This document shows, in pieces, positions 6,038 to 60,514 of a DNA stretch of 64,000 nucleotides. Made by a program: the position numbers and the translations under genes. The stretch lies in assembly GCA_001817065.1 (NCBI GenBank), contig MHHQ01000009.1, positions 16,211 through 80,210 of the forward strand. The letters run 5' to 3'. How positions within the stretch are numbered: the first letter of the stretch is position 1; every line of letters begins with the position of its first letter. Below the pieces are notes generated by a model. It was not told the DNA's origin. It did not search any database and worked only from the letters and a program-made list of their open reading frames with translations. This DNA comes from Candidatus Andersenbacteria bacterium RIFCSPHIGHO2_02_FULL_46_16 (GTDB taxonomy: Bacteria; Patescibacteriota; Andersenbacteria; UBA10190).

Positions 6038-6080
6038 AACACTCACAATATTCTGATTTAGATGGTTTTGAACTGGTGAT

Positions 6081-6129
6081 CCCACTGTGCAGAAAACCAC
6101 CCCGCCGCAGGCGGGGTGGGGGCTCCATT
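6081..6129 (+). repeat. Family-1 GC-rich element, short 'solo hairpin' copy
   Basis: gtgcagaaaaccaccccgccgcaggcggggtgggggctccat. Shares the 5' (gcagaaaacc) and 3' (ggggctccat) termini of the long copies at 7209 and 26478, and contains a perfect 10-bp hairpin. Confidence 0.5.
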
Positions 6130-7042: not shown

Positions 7043-7208
7043 AGTTCAAATATTCTGAAGGGATTTCCTGGGGGTAAACTTTGATATAACGATAATAAAC
7101 TTAACAAACAGAAAGGACCAGAGTAGCACGATCCTTCAAACAACGAACTCTAAAGTGTAAATGTCAAAGTTCCCTCCTTCGCTCGATTAAAAGCTAAAGG
7201 AAATTTTA

Positions 7209-7428
7209 TTCCACGGTGCAGAAAACTACCCCGCTGGTGGTGGTTGAATCAGCTGTCGCCAATGCTTTGGCCGACAAGACAAGGTGCGAATGGGATAATC
7301 CCTCGCTGCCATTCAAAGCTCCGTGAGCAAGGGAGGGTAGCTCCGCCGATAGCGGAGCAAGTGAGATTGACAGTTGGCTGCTACGCGGGATTCCGCTCCC
7401 AGTCCAGGGGGCGGGATGGGGCTCCATG
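7209..7428 (+). repeat. Family-1 GC-rich structured element, long copy A (~220 nt)
   Basis: Shares termini and an internal core (ccattcaaagctccgtgag..., gctgctacgcgggattccgct...cagggggcgggatg) with the copy at 26478-26702. Three overlapping ORF-track ORFs here are judged spurious. Confidence 0.5.
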
Positions 7429-7557
7429 TAAGTAGTGTAACGATAGGCGGGATACCCTGAACGTGCGTACCTTGAACGTGCACTTGGACGGGCACTGCAC
7501 TTGTGTATTAAGTGAGCTTAGTTATAATGATTTGATAATTATTTATATATTTAATTT

Positions 7558-18642: not shown

Positions 18643-20526
18643 ATGCGATCAGACAAAATAGTAATTGGCGCTAGGCGGATAGGTGAAGGCGAACCAGTAT
18701 TTATAATTGCCGAGGCCTCGATTAATCATAACGGGAGCATCAAACGGGCGCGACAGTTGATCAAAGCGGCAGCTGCTACTGGGGCCGACGCAGTGAAGTT
18801 CCAGAAGCGTAATTTGGAGGAAGTTTACCAGAAAAAACTGTTAGATAATCCCAATAGTGCTGAACAGAAATATCAATATTTGATTCCTTTGCTAAAGGAA
18901 TTTGAGTTGCCGGATGAAGCATTTGTAGAGCTGGAAAAATATGCGGAAGAGCTAGGTATCATTTTTCTGGTTAATGGCTGGGACGTGAAGAGTGTGGGAT
19001 GGATTGAAGATAATTTGCATATTCCGGTACATAAAGTCGGGTCGCCGGACATGACTAATGACGAGCTGCTGGAAGTTATCGCAGCGACCAAGAAGCCGAT
19101 GATTGTTTCAACGGGGATGAGCAGGGAAGAGGAAATTGACCATATGGTGCTGCTGCTGCAAGGTTTAGGCACCAAGTTTGCTTTGATGCATACAAACAAT
19201 ATTTATCCGGCACCGTTTGATGAAATTAATTTGAAGTTTATGGATCGGCTGCGTAAATATGGTCTGCCGGTAGGTTATTCTGGTCATGAGCGAGGGATAG
19301 CGGTAGCGATCGCAGCTGTCGCGCGCGGAGCTGTGATTGTCGAACGTCATTTGACGGTCGACCGTTTACTGGAGGGGCCAGATCACAAAGCCAGTTTACT
19401 GCCAGAGGAGTTTAAGGAAATGGTAACGAGCATTCAACAGGTGGAGAAGTCCTTAGGGGATGGGCAGAAAAGGTTTATTCGGATAGAACAAATGAATCGG
19501 GAGCAACTGGGCAAGAGTATTGTGGCAAAAACTTTTATCAGTGATGGAACGGTCATTACCCGGGACATGTTGATGACCAGGAGTCCCGCGAAGGGTTTAT
19601 CGCCGCAAAGGATGGAAGAAGTAGTGGGGGTCATAGCACCCCGCGATATACCCGCGGGCGAAGCTTTGATGGAGGATGATTTAACAGCGGACGAGATATT
19701 ACAAACATTCAACGGACATGGTATACCATTGAAATGGGGACCAGTGGTTCGGCTGCGTGAGGATTTTGAACGATATATGGGTTTTGAACCCAAGGTCTTT
19801 GAGTTTCATTTAAGTGATAAAGATTTGGATGAGGAAGTGCCCCAGGGTAAATTTCAGCAAGAGGTGGTCGTGCATGCGCCAGAGTATATGCACCGGCTGT
19901 ATTTGAATCCGGCGACGGAGAATAAGGAAGAGCGGCAAATTGCCATTAAGACATTACAGCGCAGTATCCAGGTAGCGGAGCAGCTGGCCGAATCGTTCAA
20001 GGGACCGGCGAAGTTAGTGATTCATCCTTGCGGCGTAACCTTGCAACCGGCGACGGATGCGGCAAAGCTGCTAGAAATATTTGTGGATACACTGCAGCAG
20101 CTAAAGACGAATAATGTTGAACTGCTGCCGGAGAATATGCCGCCGCGGCCCTGGGTATTTGGGGGAGAGTGGGTAGGTAATATATTTCTGCTGGATGAAG
20201 AAATTAAACGGTTTCTAAATCAGACGGGACATAAGATGTGTTTTGACACATCACATGCAGCACTGGCGTGTAATGCTGCCGGTTATGATTTAATAAGAAT
20301 GGTACGAGAATTAAAACCTTATATTCGCCATTTGCATGTGTCTGATGCTAGCGGGATTGGGGATGAAGGATTACAAATTGGTGAAGGGACAATTGATTGG
20401 GCGAAGGTATTTAGGGAGTTAGAAGGTTATCAGTATACGATGGTACCAGAAATATGGCAGGGACATTTGCATGGCGGAAAAGGTTTTTTGCAGGGAATGG
20501 AGCATTTGCGTAAATATTGGCAATAA
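18643..20526 (+). CDS. N-acetylneuraminate/nonulosonate synthase (NeuB/PseI/LegI family) fused to a C-terminal xylose-isomerase-like TIM-barrel (sugar-phosphate isomerase/epimerase) domain
   Basis: NeuB N-terminal motifs (IIAEASINHNGS, AVKFQ, SGHERG) and a SAF domain, then a ~270-aa extension ending in HLHVSDASGIGDEGLQIGEGTIDW, typical of AP-endonuclease-2/xylose-isomerase-like barrels. 627 aa versus ~350 aa for a typical NeuB. Confidence 0.8.
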   Translation: MRSDKIVIGARRIGEGEPVFIIAEASINHNGSIKRARQLIKAAAATGADAVKFQKRNLEEVYQKKLLDNPNSAEQKYQYLIPLLKEFELPDEAFVELEKYAEELGIIFLVNGWDVKSVGWIEDNLHIPVHKVGSPDMTNDELLEVIAATKKPMIVSTGMSREEEIDHMVLLLQGLGTKFALMHTNNIYPAPFDEINLKFMDRLRKYGLPVGYSGHERGIAVAIAAVARGAVIVERHLTVDRLLEGPDHKASLLPEEFKEMVTSIQQVEKSLGDGQKRFIRIEQMNREQLGKSIVAKTFISDGTVITRDMLMTRSPAKGLSPQRMEEVVGVIAPRDIPAGEALMEDDLTADEILQTFNGHGIPLKWGPVVRLREDFERYMGFEPKVFEFHLSDKDLDEEVPQGKFQQEVVVHAPEYMHRLYLNPATENKEERQIAIKTLQRSIQVAEQLAESFKGPAKLVIHPCGVTLQPATDAAKLLEIFVDTLQQLKTNNVELLPENMPPRPWVFGGEWVGNIFLLDEEIKRFLNQTGHKMCFDTSHAALACNAAGYDLIRMVRELKPYIRHLHVSDASGIGDEGLQIGEGTIDWAKVFRELEGYQYTMVPEIWQGHLHGGKGFLQGMEHLRKYWQ

Positions 20527-22469: not shown

Positions 22470-23411
22470 TTAAACAGAAGGCCAATGGGCCGGATCGACT
22501 AAGTTGGGATCGGCAATGGCTAGGTTGGATAGTTTGCCCAATACTGGTGGGCTAAGAGGGCCTTCTTTGATAGCAGACAGGGCGCTATGTAAATGCCGTG
22601 GTTCGATGGTGCCAATTAATATAGTGGAGACAGCGGGATGGGAGGTGGCAAAGCGGATGGCTAAGCTGGGCAAGTCGGTGGATAATTTTTTAGCTATGGC
22701 AGCGGCTTGGGCGGAATTTTCTTTTAGGGGATCTAAGGCGGGAGGAAGGTGCCAGACGGAGGAGGTGAGAGCTCCTTTTAATAAAACTGACCGATTAATG
22801 ATGCCAATATTACTGGCAAAAGCAGCGGGAAAGACTTGAGCTGCCATGCGTTGGTCAAGAATGCTGTAAGCAGTTTGAATGGTAGAGAAAAAGTTGGTTT
22901 CAATGGCAGCGAGGGGTGCATCGGTGCCGCGTGTGGCAATACCGATATGCTGTATTTTCCCCTCATCCTTTATACGTCGCAAAATATCTATTAATTCTCC
23001 ACGTTCCAACTGCTCGGCGGATCCGCCATGCAGCTGTAACAGCTGGAGGGAATCGGTGCGCAGGCGCCTAAGGCTTTCTTCTACCTCGCTCCTGATAGCC
23101 TGCTCCAATTCCGGGCCGCGCGGATCCTGGCCTTTTTCTAAAAATTGAGCACACTTGGTGCCAATAACAATTTGAGGCAGGCGAGCTATGCCAGATCGTC
23201 CGATACGTTCTTCTGCGACGCCATAGCTATGGGCAGTATCGAAATAGGTGATACCTAAGTCTACAGCGGTTTTAAGGATGCGATCTGCTTCTTTGTCAGT
23301 GGGAAGAGTAGTGACTCCAATACCATAAGGCAGACCAATCTCAACAGTTCCAAGACCAATGGAAGAAACATTTAATTTGGTGGAACCTAAGGGGTGACTG
23401 GTTAATGCCAT
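22470..23411 (-). CDS. Aldo/keto reductase family oxidoreductase
   Basis: GLGTVEIG...YFDTAHSYG signature. 313 aa. Confidence 0.8.
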   Translation of the reverse strand: MALTSHPLGSTKLNVSSIGLGTVEIGLPYGIGVTTLPTDKEADRILKTAVDLGITYFDTAHSYGVAEERIGRSGIARLPQIVIGTKCAQFLEKGQDPRGPELEQAIRSEVEESLRRLRTDSLQLLQLHGGSAEQLERGELIDILRRIKDEGKIQHIGIATRGTDAPLAAIETNFFSTIQTAYSILDQRMAAQVFPAAFASNIGIINRSVLLKGALTSSVWHLPPALDPLKENSAQAAAIAKKLSTDLPSLAIRFATSHPAVSTILIGTIEPRHLHSALSAIKEGPLSPPVLGKLSNLAIADPNLVDPAHWPSV

Positions 23412-23483
23412 ATTTGCAGCGTAGCATATTGAGAGAAATTACTATCTATTCAGAGTCCAAATGCGTATGCGTGAAGGCAGAGG

Positions 23484-24127
23484 TTAAGTTAATAGACGAA
23501 GTGGCACTTTAATAATAATTTTTTGCACAAAAGTAGTAGAGGGATGAGAAAAACCAGGCCGGTGGGCGTCATAGGGGAAAAGAATTGCGACATAGCGGGG
23601 CAGCATGGGAATAGATTGGGCGGCTGGTGTGGGATTGTATAGGACATAGTCTTCTTGGTCATTCCGCGAGACTGATATTAGACCGTCGACGGGAACTACT
23701 TGAATGATTTCGCTACCCGATAAACAAATATGGACATCTATAGATGTCACATTATGAAATGCCACTCTTAAATAAACGGGTGGCGGCGCGGGGGACCCCC
23801 ACCGAGCGCCTGCAGGCTGCCCGCCTGGCAGGCCGAAGCCGTCGGGTGGGGGTGCAGCGCCGACAGGGCCCGTCACTATATTTGTGGCATTTCATAATGT
23901 GACTTCCATATGTGACGCATATGTGACTCATATTTATCAGAGCTGGACTTTGTGGTGGGTATGGTTTTTAAATAAGCTTTAATGGTTGGGAGATTCGGAT
24001 TAATAAAAGTGTTGTTTTGATCGGAGAGCGGTATCTGAGTAAGCCAGGTAAAAACGGTGCGCCAAGCGGGATGTGGCAGTTGTTCATACACCTGGGCAAG
24101 GTTGTCCAGATCGCCAATGATAGACAT
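23484..24127 (-). pseudogene. YhcH/YjgK/YiaL (DUF386, NanQ-like) family gene disrupted by a MITE insertion
   Basis: The upstream fragment (24127->~23906: MSIIGDLDNL...KYESHMRHI) and downstream fragment (~23745->23484: ...HICLSGSEII...AILFPYDAHRPG...KIIIKV) together match the ~155-aa DUF386 layout (MIIG.L.NL, (E/K)xHxxYIDIQ, FFP.D.H.P, KVVVKV). They are separated by the 160-nt TIR element and lie in different frames. Confidence 0.5.
23737..23910. mobile_element. MITE family 2, copy 1 (TIR-flanked GC-rich core) inserted in the DUF386 gene
   Basis: 20-bp perfect terminal inverted repeats gtcacattatgaaatgccac (23745-23764) / gtggcatttcataatgtgac (23884-23903) flank a GC-rich core homologous to the element at 56639-56864. 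Confidence 0.5.
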
Positions 24128-24171
24128 AGGTTTGTCTTTAGGATAACCATTTAACTAGTAAAAGGAATATA

Positions 24172-25086
24172 TTGGTAGCAACACGGCTTGCGGTGCTGGT
24201 CAATCAATGGTATAGAGAACGCATGAGTCAGCAAAGCGATAATCCAAAGAGGGAACTGATAGAAACGGTGGCGATTATTCCGGCGCGGGGAGGCAAACAG
24301 AGCATCCCCTACAAAAATTTACAAAAACTTGGGGGGAGGACTCTGTTGGCATGGGCGGTAGAAGTGGCCTTAGCGGCTGAGAGCGTGGATGCTGTGTTAG
24401 TATCAACGGAAGACAAGAAGATAGCCCAAGAAGCAGAAAGGTTGGGAGCAATAGTAGTTCCCCGGCCAAAAAAATATTCGCAACCTCAGAGCAGCGATGC
24501 CGGTTGGTATTCCCATGCGGTGGACTGGATGGAAACAGAAAAAGGCTGGAAACCGGAATTATTGGTTAATTTACGGCCAACTAGTCCACTGCGGTTCGTG
24601 TATGATGTGGAGGCGATGGTTAAGTATATGAAGAACAATCCGCAGGCGGATGGTCTAAAAAGCGTTGTCTCGGCGCCTATACATCCTTATAAAATGTGGG
24701 TATTTGCTGGTGAAAACAGTGTCAATAATGATGAGTCAGGCTTATCAGGATCACAGGACGAAGATAGTGGCCGGGAATTAGCGGTTGGTGGGGCAGGGAC
24801 CCTTAAAGGAGTCTTTGATAATGATTTTCGCCGGCTGCATGGACCAGACCACCCCCGACAAAAAATACAAAAAAGCTGGCCGGTTTATTGGCAGGATGGG
24901 CAGGTAGATATTACACGTCGGCGTTTTGTTTTGCGCCCAGAATGTTTACAGTACAATAATGTTTGGGGAGAAAACTTGCATGGCTATGTGCTGGATCCGC
25001 GAACGAGTACCGACTTAGATACACTGGAGGATTTTCACCGAGCAGAAAAAATATATAAAGAGCTGCAAAAAGAACGAGGCAATTAA
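24172..25086 (+). CDS. Acylneuraminate (CMP-nonulosonate) cytidylyltransferase family protein (NeuA-like)
   Basis: VAIIPARGGKQSIPYKNL...VLVSTED...A..LGA pattern of CMP-NeuAc/CMP-Kdo synthetase-like enzymes. A likely later start lies at MSQQSD (24223). Confidence 0.7.
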   Translation: MVATRLAVLVNQWYRERMSQQSDNPKRELIETVAIIPARGGKQSIPYKNLQKLGGRTLLAWAVEVALAAESVDAVLVSTEDKKIAQEAERLGAIVVPRPKKYSQPQSSDAGWYSHAVDWMETEKGWKPELLVNLRPTSPLRFVYDVEAMVKYMKNNPQADGLKSVVSAPIHPYKMWVFAGENSVNNDESGLSGSQDEDSGRELAVGGAGTLKGVFDNDFRRLHGPDHPRQKIQKSWPVYWQDGQVDITRRRFVLRPECLQYNNVWGENLHGYVLDPRTSTDLDTLEDFHRAEKIYKELQKERGN

Positions 25087-26379: not shown

Positions 26380-26477
26380 TGCAGTTTAGGATTGTTGCGA
26401 ATAAGGCACTTGTCGAGCAAGGTGTGATTTTTAATTAGTGTTTGACACTTGTTTATACCAGTAAATTTTACAATTTA

Positions 26478-26702
26478 TTCCACTGCGCAGAAAACCACGC
26501 CGCCGGTGGCGGGGGTGGATGAATCAGCGTCGCCAAGGCTTTGGCAGACAAGGAATGGGATAACCTCGCACTACCATTCAAAGCTCCGTGAGTAAGTGGG
26601 GTAGATAGTTGGTTGCTACGCGGGATTCCGCTATCCCACCCAGGGGGCGGGATGCCCCGTTATCGCGGGGACCGCCCCGCCTGCGGCGGGGTGGGGCTCC
26701 AT
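26478..26702 (+). repeat. Family-1 GC-rich structured element, long copy B (~225 nt), with hairpins at both ends
   Basis: 5' hairpin ccacgccgcc-ggt-ggcgggggtgg and 3' hairpin ccgccccgcc-tgc-ggcggggtgg. Internal core shared with copy A. Followed by a further GC-rich structured tract to ~26950. Confidence 0.5.
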
Positions 26703-27031
26703 AGGTTGTAAACAAGACATTAGGCTGATTGGTATGAGCTCACAAGACTGAAATGACGCCTGGCACAGCCGGCCCTATTCGCTCATTCTCTCTCGCCCCA
26801 GCGGCTCGTTGAGAGAGGAGTTCGGCCTGGTTGCCACGCCTACGCATGCAGCCTGCCGTCCGGCAGGCAGGCTTCGGCGGGGACCAGGCCGAAAAGACCT
26901 CACAATTCGCTCCTAGCACTGGCTGTGCGATGCTGGGTTAGCTAGGTTACTCGGGTTGGTGAGTAGATAAACTGATTGTGTTGACAGCCGAATAGATATA
27001 TGGTAGTCTATTAGTGATAATAATTTACTAA

Positions 27032-38466: not shown

Positions 38467-38591
38467 GGACGAAAGCACAAAACACAAATTACAAAACCCA
38501 AAGAAACTTAACAAACGTGACAAGCTTTGCAAACAAACGTTACAAACCGAGCAAACTAAATAAGAACTAATAAACAATAAAGAAAAGAGGA

Positions 38592-39173: not shown

Positions 39174-39279
39174 GTTTAAAAACTTTATAAACCTTAACAA
39201 AACGATAACAAACTTAACACACAGATGGGATAAACTGATAAATATTTTCAATTTTTGAATTTACTTTTAATTTTATTTT

Positions 39280-41265: not shown

Positions 41266-41806
41266 AAATTTTGCTGGACAAACGAAATCTATGGGAACTT
41301 ACGGTGCTGGTTGGTGTTACGGTGTTGGCAAAGGATGTGGGGAAGGCACAGAACAAAAGGGATGGAAAAGAAAACCCCCGTGACAAATTGTCATAACGGG
41401 GAAAGAGAGCAAGGTAGACAAGTATTTTGTCTAGGGAAGGAAGATCAATAGTTTTCGGACAAAATTTTTTGAGCCTCTAGACTAAGTAGTCGGCTGTTGT
41501 GTGGGCCTGGGCCGTAAGTAGGTTCACCGAATAACCCGATATGATGGTTCGCGCATGATTGAAGGTGAACGGGAAAAGTACGAAGAGGTATTGGTTGGTT
41601 ACAGATGTTGCACGTTTGAGTTTTGTCGTCCTCACTATTGTTGCACATGAGATTCTTCCTCGAAGTTGGTGAAGGAACCATCAAGCTAAGTAAATTGTTA
41701 TTAGTGTAGCGATTAGAAAGTGACGTGTCAAAGAGGAGTGGTGGAGTGGTGGAGAAAAGTGATGTTACGCAGTGAGCGGCAATGATTTGGTAGGTGAAAA
41801 CAATTT

Positions 41807-41995
41807 TACTAAGGCGCCATCCAAAAATAACTTGGCCAGATCTCGTTCAATATGCGTCGAGATACGGCTTTTCCAATTGAGCGAACCAGGAGCCGTAGCC
41901 AAGCTACGGTGAGTGGTTCGCGATTGAAGAAAAGTCGTAGATTGGCGCATAGTGGGCGAGAGATGGTTAAGTTATTTACGGATGGTGACTAAGGC
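41807..41995 (+). mobile_element. MITE family 3 copy with 8-bp target-site duplication
   Basis: Direct repeat ACTAAGGC at 41807-41814 and 41988-41995. Imperfect ~22-bp TIRs (gccatccaaaaataacttggcc / ggttaagttatttacggatggtg). Structured core (gcgaacca-ccgtagccaagctacgg-tggttcgc). Confidence 0.55.
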
Positions 41996-45592: not shown

Positions 45593-45779
45593 GGATTTAG
45601 GCACCGCAACGAAATAATTTCTTAAGGTTTCGTTCAAGATGTGTCCAGCTATGGCTTTTTCGATTGAGCGAAATACGAGGCGTAGCCAAGCTACGGTGAG
45701 TATTTCGTGATTGAGAAAAAGTCATAGATGGGTGCAGATTGGGCGAAAGGTGGGAAATTATTTTGTGGCGGTGCCTTAG
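45593..45779 (+). mobile_element. MITE family 3 copy (diverged) between the metal-ABC ATPase and permease genes
   Basis: TIRs ggcaccgcaacgaaataatttc / gaaattattttgtggcggtgcc. Core (gagcgaaatacgaggcgtagccaagctacggtgag) homologous to the 41807 copy. Short TTAG repeats flank it. Confidence 0.5.
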
Positions 45780-54848: not shown

Positions 54849-56486
54849 ATGGGAAATCGCCAGCGAGGGAAATTCTGGAAGCTGATCAAGCAGATAGTCA
54901 AAGGGGCTGAGGATGGGGTAACCGTTGTGGAGTTATTGGTATTTATTGGCATCGGATCGGTTCTGATTGCGACGCTAGCGGTGATCGTATCTGGAACGTC
55001 TCGCGTCTCGCGGCAGCAGATGGAGCAAGGAGTAATCACAGAAAAGGCGCGGGTACAATTAGAAAGAATAAGTGATGAAATCCGGAATGCCCAGTATGTG
55101 GACTGTAACTTGGATAGCGATACGGCTGATGTCAATGAATACTGGTTGTACGGCGCGAGTGATTGGGAAATAATTGTTTTAAGCAATGTGGATGATGATG
55201 TGGAAGCAGAACGGGTGAGATATTTTGTGCAGGCTAGTACTACCGGTGAAACAAAGAAGTTAAAGAGGGCGGTGACGCAGCCAGGTGCATCATTGTGCGA
55301 TTTTTCACCTAATTCTGAAAATATCACAACAGTCCTAGATGGTTTAGTAAATGTGACACTCGACCCTGACAGGCCGCTTTTTCAGTATTTCATGAGTGGC
55401 CAGGATGCAGCCCGTTTAACCACGCCGGTGATACGATTATCGAGCGTGCTTAGGGTGAGGTTGCATTTAGTAATTGACGAGGATATAAACACCGATCCGG
55501 CGCTGGTGGAGGTGGTGACTGATGTGGTACCGCGCGGCGTGGAGGATCCGGGAGCATGTGTGATCAATAGGGTTGATTTTTATCGATACCATATGACCGA
55601 ATCGTTTGCCGATGCCGCTTTTATTTCATGTCAGTCTCATTGCCTAGGGATAGCAGTGCTACCGCCTGGTGAATGTTGTCCCTGGTCAACGGCTTTTTAT
55701 CTGGATTCAGCTACTGGCTGGGTGTGGTCCACGTGCCAGTGCGCTGATACCTATTTGCCGCCGGATATAATTCCAGAAAATGTTAATCTTAACCAATATA
55801 CGTCTTCTGTGAGAGGGTGTTTGGACGGAACCAGATGCGCGGGGCTAAAGGGCGAGGCGGTCTGTGAGGCAGGCTGCCTAGACACACCAGGAGAATGCGT
55901 GTGTGTTTGTCCGGCCGGATTACCGCCGACGACGGCGTGCAATGACGGGGTTGATAATGATGGGGACGGGACGGCAGATTGTTCGGGTTGTGGCGGTGTG
56001 GCGGGTTTATTAGATGATCCAGGATGTTCGGGTTACGGCGATAGCTCAGAGTGGGGCACCACCCAATGTGATGACGGTATCGATAATGACGGTTGTAACG
56101 GAACTGACTTTAAGATTAACGGGACCGGAGATATTGACTGTGTTGATCCGGCGGATGACGACGAAGGCCCTTGTTTGAGTGGTTCTCCGTCAGGTTGCGT
56201 GCCAACACAGATTCCGAGCATACCACAATGCAGTGATGAATTGGATAATGACTGCGCAGGTGATGGGATTGATTATGCCGGTGGGGCGGGGGACTTGCAG
56301 TGCCAAAATATTAACGATAATAATGAATGGTCAATCAACAAGCAGTGCAATGATGGGTTTGATAATGATGCAGACGGGACAGTTGATTGTTGGTGGCTAT
56401 TTTGTGCTAGATTAAGACCTGATGATAAGTCCGCGGACACTGATTGCACCGGTCCAAATGACGACAGTGAGTTTTCGGATGTATAG
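54849..56486 (+). CDS. Prepilin-type protein with C-terminal MopE/thrombospondin-type-3-like Asp-rich Cys repeats
   Basis: AEDG|VTVVELLVFIGIGSVLIATLAV prepilin helix. The C-terminal 200 aa contain CNDGVDNDGDGTADC, QCDDGIDNDGCNGTD, CSDELDNDCAGDGID and QCNDGFDNDADGTVDC repeats (putative Ca/metal-binding, C.DG.DNDCDG..D). Confidence 0.65.
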   Translation: MGNRQRGKFWKLIKQIVKGAEDGVTVVELLVFIGIGSVLIATLAVIVSGTSRVSRQQMEQGVITEKARVQLERISDEIRNAQYVDCNLDSDTADVNEYWLYGASDWEIIVLSNVDDDVEAERVRYFVQASTTGETKKLKRAVTQPGASLCDFSPNSENITTVLDGLVNVTLDPDRPLFQYFMSGQDAARLTTPVIRLSSVLRVRLHLVIDEDINTDPALVEVVTDVVPRGVEDPGACVINRVDFYRYHMTESFADAAFISCQSHCLGIAVLPPGECCPWSTAFYLDSATGWVWSTCQCADTYLPPDIIPENVNLNQYTSSVRGCLDGTRCAGLKGEAVCEAGCLDTPGECVCVCPAGLPPTTACNDGVDNDGDGTADCSGCGGVAGLLDDPGCSGYGDSSEWGTTQCDDGIDNDGCNGTDFKINGTGDIDCVDPADDDEGPCLSGSPSGCVPTQIPSIPQCSDELDNDCAGDGIDYAGGAGDLQCQNINDNNEWSINKQCNDGFDNDADGTVDCWWLFCARLRPDDKSADTDCTGPNDDSEFSDV

Positions 56487-56638: not shown

Positions 56639-56864
56639 CTATAGACATCACATCATAAAATGTCACTGCAGAATAAGCGGGTGGCGGCGCGGGGGTCCCC
56701 CACCGAGCGCCAGCAGCCCTGAGCCTGCCTACCGGTAGGCAGGCTTGTCGAAGGGCGATGCCGTCGGGTGGGGGGAGCAGCGCCGACAGGCCTGCGGGCC
56801 GAAGCCATAGCGAAGGCTGGACCCGTTTCTTGTCTGGTGGCTTTTCATGATGTGACACCTATAG
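56639..56864. mobile_element. MITE family 2, copy 2 (TIR-flanked GC-rich core)
   Basis: TIRs ctatagacatcacatcataaaatgtcac / gtggcttttcatgatgtgacacctatag. The core shares aagcgggtggcggcgcgggggtcccccaccgagcgcc and gccgtcgggtggggg.gcagcgccgacagg with copy 1. Confidence 0.5.
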
Positions 56865-56971: not shown

Positions 56972-58510
56972 ATGGGGCACCTAGCGCAACTTTATGAATG
57001 GCGAAACTGGTCAAGCAAGACTTGGCTAGTTTTAATTTTGCTGACAGCCAGCGTGGTTACCCATTTTATCTGGTTTGGTTATCCTACGCAGGTAGTGTTT
57101 GATGAGGTGCATTTTGGTAAGTTTGTGACGGCATATTGCTGCACCCACCAACGTTTTTTTGACATTCATCCCCCCCACGCCAAGTTGTTAATCGCTGGTA
57201 CGGCATATGCCTTAGGCTATCGGGGCGGGGTAAGTTTTGAGAATATAGGTCAAGACTTTGGCAGTGTGAGTACGTGGCCACTGCGCGTTTTTCCGGCAAT
57301 AACTGGAGTGCTGTTACCGCTGGTTATATATGCATTACTTAGGCAATTAAAGGCGTCAGCCGCAGCGGCGTTTTTTGGCGGCATGCTGGTTGTGTTGGAT
57401 AATGCGTTAACGGTGCAGACAAGGATGATCGCTTTAGACGGTTTATTACTAGTGTCAACCTTTGGAGCGCTGGCGGTATATTTAGCAGCGAGAAAAGAGA
57501 TGCAGCAGTACAGAGAGTCCCCAGATCAGAATGGAGGACAAAGCAACTGGTGGAGTAGGTTGACTGGCGGGATCAGGATGCGACGAGAGGGGTGGATGTT
57601 TGGTCTAGCGGGGGGTCTGGCTGGTTTAGCGGTGGGTACCAAGTTTACAGGGCTCACAGCCGGTGGATTGTTAGTGCTATTGTTGGGTGCGTGGCTGGTG
57701 CAGATTAGATCATGGGGGGAAATTAAGCGGTGGAGGACAGCGGTGGTGTTTATAGTACTGGCGGCGATCGTGGTGTATGGGTTGGGCTGGATGATACATT
57801 TTATGATTTTAACGGAAGCAGGGGACGGGGACTTGTGGCGCAAACCACAATGGGAACAACCGATCATGGCTAGTTTTTGGCGGGAGACAAAAGCTATACA
57901 CAAATTAATGTATGACGCTAATAGTGGATTAAAAGCGGAACACCATGATGCCAGCCATTGGTGGTCTTGGCCTTTAGTACAGACCCCGGTATTTTATTGG
58001 CAATTGAGTCAGAACGAAGGAGGGGTAAGTCGATCGGGATCGATCTACTTCCTGCCAAATCCGATTTTGTGGTGGGGTACATCCGCCGTGTTTGCGGTAA
58101 TACTTTTATCGATGCTGATAACGGGGGTAAACAATTTAGTCAGATGGCATGGCGGGTGGCAAAAGAGAGTCGGGCGAATGAGGCAGCAGTGGCAACAGTC
58201 GTTCTTGAAACAAGCATGGTTACCGTTAATGGGCTATGCAGCATCATATATACCATTAATGAAAGTGACGAGAGTGTTATTTCTTTATCACTATCTGACA
58301 CCATGGTTGTTTTCACTATTGGTGGTGGTGTTGTGGTTAGAACGAATAGGCTGGATTGCACGGGAGGAGATAGTTGATCAGCCAAAGAGGTATTGGTTGG
58401 TACTAGCCATTATCCTTGGTGCCTTTATATTTTTTAGTCCACTGACATACGGATTTCTATTGTCGGAAGTGAGCCGGAGCTGGCTATTTTGGTTTAAGAC
58501 ATGGTTGTAA
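56972..58510 (+). CDS. PMT-family (GT39-like, dolichyl-phosphate-mannose-protein mannosyltransferase-type) integral-membrane glycosyltransferase
   Basis: VVFDEVHFGKF...FFDIHPPHAKLL, the loop-1 DE motif and flanking residues characteristic of protein O-mannosyltransferases. About 11 TM helices, 512 aa. Confidence 0.75.
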   Translation: MGHLAQLYEWRNWSSKTWLVLILLTASVVTHFIWFGYPTQVVFDEVHFGKFVTAYCCTHQRFFDIHPPHAKLLIAGTAYALGYRGGVSFENIGQDFGSVSTWPLRVFPAITGVLLPLVIYALLRQLKASAAAAFFGGMLVVLDNALTVQTRMIALDGLLLVSTFGALAVYLAARKEMQQYRESPDQNGGQSNWWSRLTGGIRMRREGWMFGLAGGLAGLAVGTKFTGLTAGGLLVLLLGAWLVQIRSWGEIKRWRTAVVFIVLAAIVVYGLGWMIHFMILTEAGDGDLWRKPQWEQPIMASFWRETKAIHKLMYDANSGLKAEHHDASHWWSWPLVQTPVFYWQLSQNEGGVSRSGSIYFLPNPILWWGTSAVFAVILLSMLITGVNNLVRWHGGWQKRVGRMRQQWQQSFLKQAWLPLMGYAASYIPLMKVTRVLFLYHYLTPWLFSLLVVVLWLERIGWIAREEIVDQPKRYWLVLAIILGAFIFFSPLTYGFLLSEVSRSWLFWFKTWL

Positions 58511-58782
58511 AGATGAAACATACTCAAAACACCCTCCTACGCTAAAGCTACGGATGGGCAGGCAAAGCATAAAACTCAGACAAAGCACAGGTTATTATAA
58601 ACTTTCCAAACCATAACAAATCGGTAACAAACTTAACAAACAACAGACACGAAAATTTCAAGGTCCATCCTGCCTAAAAGCTTCTGACGGGATCCCCTCA
58701 GGACAATTATTAAATAATGACCACTGACCTTGCCTTCCCGTAAGCCGTGGGGGTAAGGTAGGCGATGTGATATTATTAAGGG

Positions 58783-60193: not shown

Positions 60194-60376
60194 AAGTCAC
60201 CATCCGTAAATAACTTAACCATTTCTCGCCCACTATGCGCCAATCTACGACTTTTCTTCAATCGCGAACCACTCACCGTAGCTTGGCTACGGCTCCTGGT
60301 TCGCTCAATTGGAAAAGCCGTATCTCGACGCATATTGAACGAGATCTGGCCAAGTTATTTTTGGATGGCGCCTAAG
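60194..60376 (-). mobile_element. MITE family 3 copy (inverted orientation)
   Basis: Reverse complement of the 41815-41987 element: gtcaccatccgtaaataacttaacc ... ggccaagttatttttggatggcgcc. Confidence 0.5.
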
Positions 60377-60514
60377 GAAAAAAGTGAATTATGCGACCCA
60401 ATTTTGAAGCGAGGAGGTGGGTTTGGGATAATTCAGAAAAATGGATGAACGAGGTATAGTTAAGAGTGAGTTTAATTATTTTCTTATTATGGGAAGGGAT
60501 GAAAGGAATAAATT

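Follow-up and report, generated by a model that had tools for sequence, protein, structure and literature searches.

The closest described systems to the element analysed here are RUP of S. pneumoniae, the Correia/NEMIS elements of Neisseria and the IS630/Tc1-mariner transposons. RUP is a MITE that is thought to be mobilised by IS630-Spn1, a member of the IS630 family; it is small and non-coding, carries terminal inverted repeats, inserts at TA, is present in many, mostly intergenic, copies and relies on a transposase provided in trans (PMC2229807). The Correia/NEMIS elements have a terminal TA and inverted repeats of ~24-26 bp, give long stable stem-loop transcripts, come in size classes (~107 vs 155 bp) set apart by an internal block and are inserted beside and occasionally inside genes (PMC2229807). 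For the IS630/Tc1-mariner group, almost exclusive targeting of TA together with a 2-bp duplication is the hallmark, and for ISY100 of Synechocystis repeats of ~24 bp were sufficient in cis and insertion at TA was shown in vitro (PMC2170065). As to the gene family concerned, YhcH (NanQ) of E. coli acts on N-acetylneuraminate as a metal-dependent anomerase (PMC8141875).

In the window (the whole stretch of 64,000 nt of 'Candidatus Andersenbacteria' DNA analysed here), a gene of the DUF386/YhcH family was found in two parts on either side of a 168-nt element, and it is very probable that a MITE inserted at a TA of this gene; the inactivation of the gene, the polarity of a terminator, the recent date of the event and mobilisation by an IS630-type enzyme are the inferred parts of this reading. 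The element is like RUP in all the respects listed above, with the transposase in trans as a proposal in our case. RUP, which could be compared with the present element by description only, is 107 bp long and has short repeats resembling a known IS630-family element, whereas the present element measures 168-220 nt, has repeats of ~25 nt and a G+C-rich core, has no matching IS known and resides in a CPR host. With the Correia/NEMIS elements it shares the terminal TA, the length of the repeats, the long stable stem-loop and the occurrence of several sizes (142-220 nt), and its insertions also lie beside and occasionally inside genes. However, host and sequence are unrelated, an IHF site and promoter function are features of the Correia side, and the copy number of the present element is apparently far lower: in the contigs seen, each genome bin has a handful of sites. 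The agreement with IS630/Tc1-mariner elements such as ISY100 lies in TA insertion, the 2-bp duplication and repeats of ~24 bp (PMC2170065), but those elements are 0.9-1.3 kb long and encode a transposase, while the present element encodes nothing and its parent element was not found.

Anatomy of the inserted element

The coordinates of the element, the split gene and its neighbours are collected in Table 1. The perfect 20-bp terminal inverted repeats reported in the preliminary description of this locus were present (GTCACATTATGAAATGCCAC, on opposite strands), compared with 0.02 matches per window expected by chance in shuffled sequence. The repeats extend to ~25 nt out to the tips with two mismatches (TAGATGTCAC... 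vs TGGAAGTCAC...), and the complete element is 168 nt long rather than the 160 nt given before. Between the repeats lies a core with a G+C content of 66-67%, compared with ~40-50% in the flanks, bordered by one A-rich and one T-rich stretch on opposite sides. Folding of the element gave -58.4 kcal/mol as DNA (z=-9.4) and -103.7 kcal/mol as RNA of the gene strand (z=-8.5). The internal ORFs are only 52-59 aa long, and a protein search with the 52-aa ORF returned one cluster only, located outside the element, which offered no route to further copies or to a parent. No Rfam family was found for the element in a permissive scan of 23300-24400 or in a scan of the whole window at gathering thresholds, and no tRNAs were found in the window. 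Being shorter than ~300 bp and non-coding, with terminal inverted repeats, a target-site duplication visible between filled and empty sites, and multiple copies, the element has the properties of a bacterial MITE.

Table 1. Positions of the element, its second copy and the surrounding genes in the window.
Feature	Position	Strand	Description and basis
DUF386/YhcH-family gene, N-terminal part	23909..24127	-	codons 1-73 (MSIIGDL...ESHMRHI); ORF list, PF04074 positions 2-68, L003 alignment
DUF386 gene, C-terminal part	23484..23738	-	codons 74-157 and stop (DVHICLSGSE...PLRLLT); PF04074, L003 alignment
Type A MITE, 168 nt	23741-23908	+	TAGATGTCAC...GTGACTTCCA; non-coding; one long hairpin
Left terminal inverted repeat, 25 nt	23741..23765	+	inner 20 nt (23746-23765) perfectly paired with right repeat
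Right terminal inverted repeat, 25 nt	23884..23908	-	inner 20 nt (23884-23903) perfectly paired with left repeat
TA target-site duplication	left 23739..23740, right 23909-23910	.	right copy is the last two bases of the N-terminal gene part
G+C-rich palindromic core	23766..23883	.	composition, folds
Type B family member, 220 nt	56642-56861	+	TA on both sides (56640-41, 56862-63); intergenic, between plus-strand ORFs 54849..56486 and 56972..58510
Aldo/keto reductase gene	22470..23411	-	PF00248; directly downstream of DUF386 gene, same strand
CMP-sugar cytidylyltransferase gene (CTP_transf_3)	24172..25086	+	PF02348; divergent from DUF386 gene; conserved in L001

The split gene and its empty site

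The N-terminal fragment is encoded by an ORF of 83 aa (24127..23876, minus strand) that starts with MSIIGDL and ends in ...ESHMRHIWKSHYEMPQI before a stop, and the C-terminal fragment lies inside the ORF 23876..23484 (minus strand), which reads ...HNVTSIDVHICLSGSE...PLRLLT before its stop. Compared with Pfam PF04074 (DUF386, YhcH/YjgK/YiaL), the first fragment covered profile positions 2-68 and the second positions 67-145 (E=1.2e-14). When the two were joined as ...ESHMRHI-DVHICLSGSE..., the resulting 157-aa protein matched positions 2-144 of 145 with 86.3 bits (E=2.6e-24), above the PF04074 gathering score of 26.5 bits and essentially over the full length. The fragments abut on the profile and the joined match runs end to end, and they are therefore co-linear halves of one gene, as the preliminary description had proposed. 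The restored protein is also a distant relative of HI0227/YhcH (PDB 1JOP/1S4C; E=1.4e-09, residues 57-156), and the insertion falls in the E-H-x2-(Y/H)-(I/L)-D segment of the aligned region.

When the restored sequence was searched against proteins, intact homologues of 157-158 aa and 62-70% identity were retrieved. Two contigs (L001 and L002) carry an intact gene with ~68% amino acid identity and the same gene neighbours; the automatic alignment to these contigs misplaced the gap, and the junction was settled with a closer relative, the JGI contig L003. L003 encodes an uninterrupted protein of 157 aa (P0007, in the same 90% cluster as P0004, see below), and its neighbours match those in the window: a cytidylyltransferase-like gene upstream, then aldo/keto reductase, SDR, methyltransferase and a NeuB fusion. 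The comparison with related genomes that had been suggested as a check thus gave an intact, syntenic gene lacking the element on all three contigs.

When the gene region was aligned base by base with L003:937-1410, nucleotide identity was 93.9% and there was a single gap, exactly 170 nt long. L003, the empty site, carries a single TA (...CGTCA(T)A-TA-GATGTCC...), and the filled site in the window reads ...CGTCACA-TA-(TGGAAGTCAC...GTGACATCTA)-TA-GATGTCC.... Since the gap is 170 nt and L003 has only one TA, the insert consists of the 168-nt element plus one extra TA. Removal of these from the window restores a gene of 474 nt, exactly the length of the orthologue. Duplications of 3 bp or 5 bp were ruled out, as the bases next to the TA differ between copies, so that the duplication is 2 bp. 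An arrangement in which the TA belongs to the element and nothing was duplicated was also rejected, because the frame would be lost if 172 nt were removed, and because the observed difference is 170 nt.

It had been suggested that a longer piece of the gene, the H..IDxH segment, was partially duplicated as the target site. H-rich peptides do occur near the break in both fragments, and strings like GTCACAT are present on both sides. The look-alike residues, however, have two other sources: the inverted repeat translated at the fragment ends (WKSHYEMPQI vs AFHNVTS), and a tandem repeat, GTCACATATGC/GTCACATA, that is native to the gene and also present in the uninterrupted L003 gene. With the exact orthologue length regained after removal of 168 nt and one TA, a longer duplication is extremely unlikely, and the alignment of filled and empty sites refutes it; the TA alone was duplicated. 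There is a similarity between the native tandem repeat and the beginning of the inverted repeat (GTCACATTATG), which may be a coincidence or a target preference; the other insertion sites have no string resembling the inverted-repeat start.

Codon 73 (ATA) of the 157-aa gene contains the target TA. The element and the additional TA add 170 nt and shift the frame, and in the DUF386 reading frame the element contributes WKSHYEMPQI, ten codons, and then a stop. In an alignment of close homologues, the break point falls between the invariant H72-I73 and D74. We infer that the gene was inactivated. Continued function through RNA-level excision, translational bypass or assembly of a split protein would fit the very stable RNA hairpin (-103.7 kcal/mol) and an ORF that starts inside the element and enters the C-terminal half in frame. 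Such a rescue is nevertheless very improbable: 170 is not a multiple of three and the frame meets a stop, no Rfam match was obtained, self-cleaving and self-splicing RNAs included, the break separates invariant residues, and every other copy lies between genes, which is what harmful effects of genic insertions would predict. Inactivation is thus the preferred reading.

The repeat family and its mobilisation

The two copies in the window were found through their repeats and not through the core. Metagenomes were scanned with a core pattern of 30 nt, and 20 further stretches (L004-L023) were returned. Among the window and these stretches 18 distinct left junctions were present, and TA preceded the element at 17 of them, the exception being L016 with AA; all ten distinct complete copies had TA on both sides. 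The mobility of the insert proposed in the preliminary description is further supported by at least 18 distinct insertion junctions in the family and by identical copies at four sites. Type A members are 168 nt long with the repeat TAGATGTCACATTATGAAATGCCAC, plus one deletion variant of 142 nt; type B members are 199-220 nt long with the repeat TAGACATCACATCATGAAATGTCAC and have extra internal hairpins. Across the family the size classes are 142, 168, 199-200 and 218-220 nt. The 168-nt type A copies were base-for-base identical at four unrelated sites (the window, L004, L008/L014/L022 and L017). When each complete copy was removed in silico, only the DUF386 copy restored a long ORF (81 + 85 codons), the other complete copies lying between genes or at their ends.

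Seven distinct copies, when aligned, retain one hairpin over the whole length, with 54 predicted pairs. Between the subfamilies six pairs were altered on both sides, some of them in the repeats and some in the core (one example is A-U to U-A, columns 55/135). In the two window copies the core arms (CGGGTGGCGGCGCGGGGG[A/T]CCCCCACCGAGCGCC; GCCGTCGGGTGGGGG...GCAGCGCCGACAGG) show higher conservation than the repeats.

Several variants were observed within the family. A palindrome of 19-20 nt, CCTGCCTACCGGTAGGCAGG, is nested in some type B copies (the second window copy, 56724-56743, and L021), with a similar sequence at 26852-26871, and is absent from L005 and L019; it is either an indel at the hairpin tip or a tiny nested insertion. 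The L010:77-196 region holds a hybrid copy with a type B left repeat and linker and a type A centre and right part, which reflects either recombination between the subfamilies or an assembly chimera. Four Ga0075963 contigs (L011, L015, L020 and L023) leave the element exactly at the hairpin tip (...CTGGCAGGCC) into unrelated sequence, and L006, L007 and L013 likewise leave it partway. Rather than real half-copies, these contigs probably represent chimeras formed at the palindrome during assembly or amplification.

The exits of the Ga0075963 contigs at the hairpin tip mean that the repeat does cause chimeras, and this speaks for the possibility that the insertion itself is an assembly artefact with a repeat wrongly threaded into the gene. 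However, six contigs carry the same split gene, and they come from NCBI and ENA assemblies of 'Candidatus Andersenbacteria' MAGs that are separate from one another; a variant of the N-terminal fragment with one residue changed was also present in JGI, so that a one-off assembly error does not account for it. The junctions are precise to the base, the TA is duplicated and the element is complete. An artefact thus has next to no probability, and we treat the insertion as genuine.

The insertion also appears to be recent, because identical copies exist elsewhere, the gene halves are otherwise undamaged, and a 98-aa protein fragment (P0004), 100% identical to the restored sequence, spans the junction uninterrupted by the insert (...ESHMRHIDVHICLSGSE...). 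The uninterrupted P0004 allele is known as this protein fragment only, its DNA not being on record.

Very probably a lineage-restricted, non-autonomous DNA transposon (MITE) inserted by cut-and-paste at the TA in codon 73, thereby duplicating the TA and splitting the DUF386/YhcH gene within a nonulosonic-acid-type cluster of a groundwater bacterium of the CPR. The transposase would have been supplied in trans, and an IS630/Tc1-mariner-type DDE enzyme is the most likely candidate because of the TA-only insertion with a 2-bp duplication and the inverted repeats of ~25 bp; TA insertion with this duplication was seen at the 17 junctions noted above and at the empty site.

Movement by another transposase family, such as the IS5 group or another DDE enzyme that prefers TA-containing targets, or an orphan element that has no active partner, was weighed against this proposal. 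No transposase domain was found among the 30 window ORFs scanned, and no autonomous element with matching inverted repeats was found in the window and L004-L023 (~235 kb), where the matches were the MITEs themselves. In the representative genomes a degenerate inverted-repeat pattern gave 42 single matches scattered over unrelated taxa, roughly as many as chance would give and none of them with a credible inverted partner or core, and a 33-nt core pattern gave 0 matches. Viral contigs gave 0 matches with the core pattern and 0 with the repeat pattern, and plasmids and phages gave no blastn match to the element. This lack of an IS630-type partner or matching repeats in related contigs, representative genomes, viral contigs, plasmids and phages favours the alternative. 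Against it stand the strict 2-bp TA duplication at 17 of the 18 junctions, which is the IS630/Tc1-mariner signature (PMC2170065), and the identical copies at four sites together with the polymorphic site, which point to recent activity and so to a working transposase that was present recently. On balance another enzyme or an orphan element seems rather unlikely, and mobilisation in trans by an IS630-type transposase is still the preferred reading. Much more speculatively, this could be an active, lineage-restricted and TA-specific MITE family in a small CPR genome that has no transposase of its own and draws the enzyme from another replicon or a partner organism, with the core acting as a portable two-way terminator; we consider this a long shot, in which the terminator role would explain why the core is better conserved than the inverted repeats between subfamilies.

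Other repeats were observed in the window. A second MITE-like family of ~187 nt, unrelated in sequence to the DUF386 element, occurs at 41804-41990, 60195-60381, 45597-45764 and 1-38 (the last truncated at the edge of the window); two of its copies, in opposite orientation, share 98% identity, a third shows 74-77% identity, and the inverted ends are long and imperfect (TTAGGCGCCATCC...AACTT... / ...GGATGGTGACTAAG). A third dispersed repeat of ~220-270 nt (7208-7430 and 26477-26745) starts with ATTCCACNGYGCAGAAAACYAC, ends with GGGGCTCCAT and contains G+C-rich hairpins; it matched no Rfam family, and a short form at 6079-6128 looks like both ends joined directly, the middle being left out. With at least two other families of dispersed structured repeats in the window, the repeat load of this small genome is notable. 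An A-rich motif (...AACGATAACAAACTTAACAAACA) is found in intergenic positions at 7063-7110, 38488-38516, 39176-39223 and 58595-58642. It lies ~55-140 nt upstream of the plus-strand ORFs 38592, 39280 and 58783, and ~450 nt from the next ORF in the case of the copy at 7063-7110; the motif may represent a common promoter or leader signal.

Gene neighbourhood and meaning of the disruption

By Pfam, the neighbours of the DUF386 gene encode a NeuB fusion, a methyltransferase, an SDR, an aldo/keto reductase and a CMP-sugar cytidylyltransferase. The sugar-cluster setting was correctly recognised in the preliminary description: this is a nonulosonic-acid-type cluster with a NeuB fusion next to a CMP-sugar cytidylyltransferase, and it is of the biosynthesis type, not a sialic-acid catabolic one. 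The fusion (18643-20526) is a 627-aa protein joining NeuB and SAF domains to a xylose-isomerase-like TIM barrel (AP_endonuc_2), and its length is conserved in L003. The window ORFs scanned with Pfam included no NanA.

The name 'NanQ-like' given earlier to the DUF386 protein stands at the level of the PF04074 family, to which the restored 157-aa product belongs together with E. coli YhcH/NanQ and HI0227, and of the distant similarity to HI0227/YhcH. It does not extend to an orthologue-type context: the nan operon is catabolic and of the NanA type, whereas the DUF386 gene here lies in a biosynthesis-type cluster with NeuB and a cytidylyltransferase. As judged from the sequence, the name is justified as a family label only.

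The order of the DUF386 gene and then the aldo/keto reductase gene is kept in L001 and L003. On the gene strand the G+C stem of the element is followed by UUUAUUU, and the other strand has a weaker T-rich stretch; read by eye, the core looks like an intrinsic terminator. The long hairpin went unreported in a simple terminator scan, as its stem and loop are larger than the scanner allows. The hairpin and U-run probably end transcription and would lower expression of the downstream aldo/keto reductase gene.

The disruption of a gene by a MITE is a well-known kind of event, and the understanding of MITE mechanisms is unchanged by this case. The element family itself appears to be undescribed, as it gave no match in the searched collections outside groundwater Andersenbacteria contigs, and a full-text literature search found no papers on MITEs in CPR bacteria. 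For annotation, the C-terminal half is deposited at NCBI as a 130-aa 'hypothetical protein' (OGY35484.1) with a GTG start inside the element, and OGY35484.1, OGY35485.1 and their equivalents in several Andersenbacteria MAGs represent gene halves entered as separate 'hypothetical proteins'; OGY35484/OGY35485 should be annotated as a single transposon-disrupted pseudogene. The locus would be a natural knock-out of DUF386 in a conserved nonulosonic-acid-type cluster, which suggests that the gene is dispensable there. The identical copies and the uninterrupted protein fragment crossing the junction also point to recent transposon activity in an ultra-small CPR genome.
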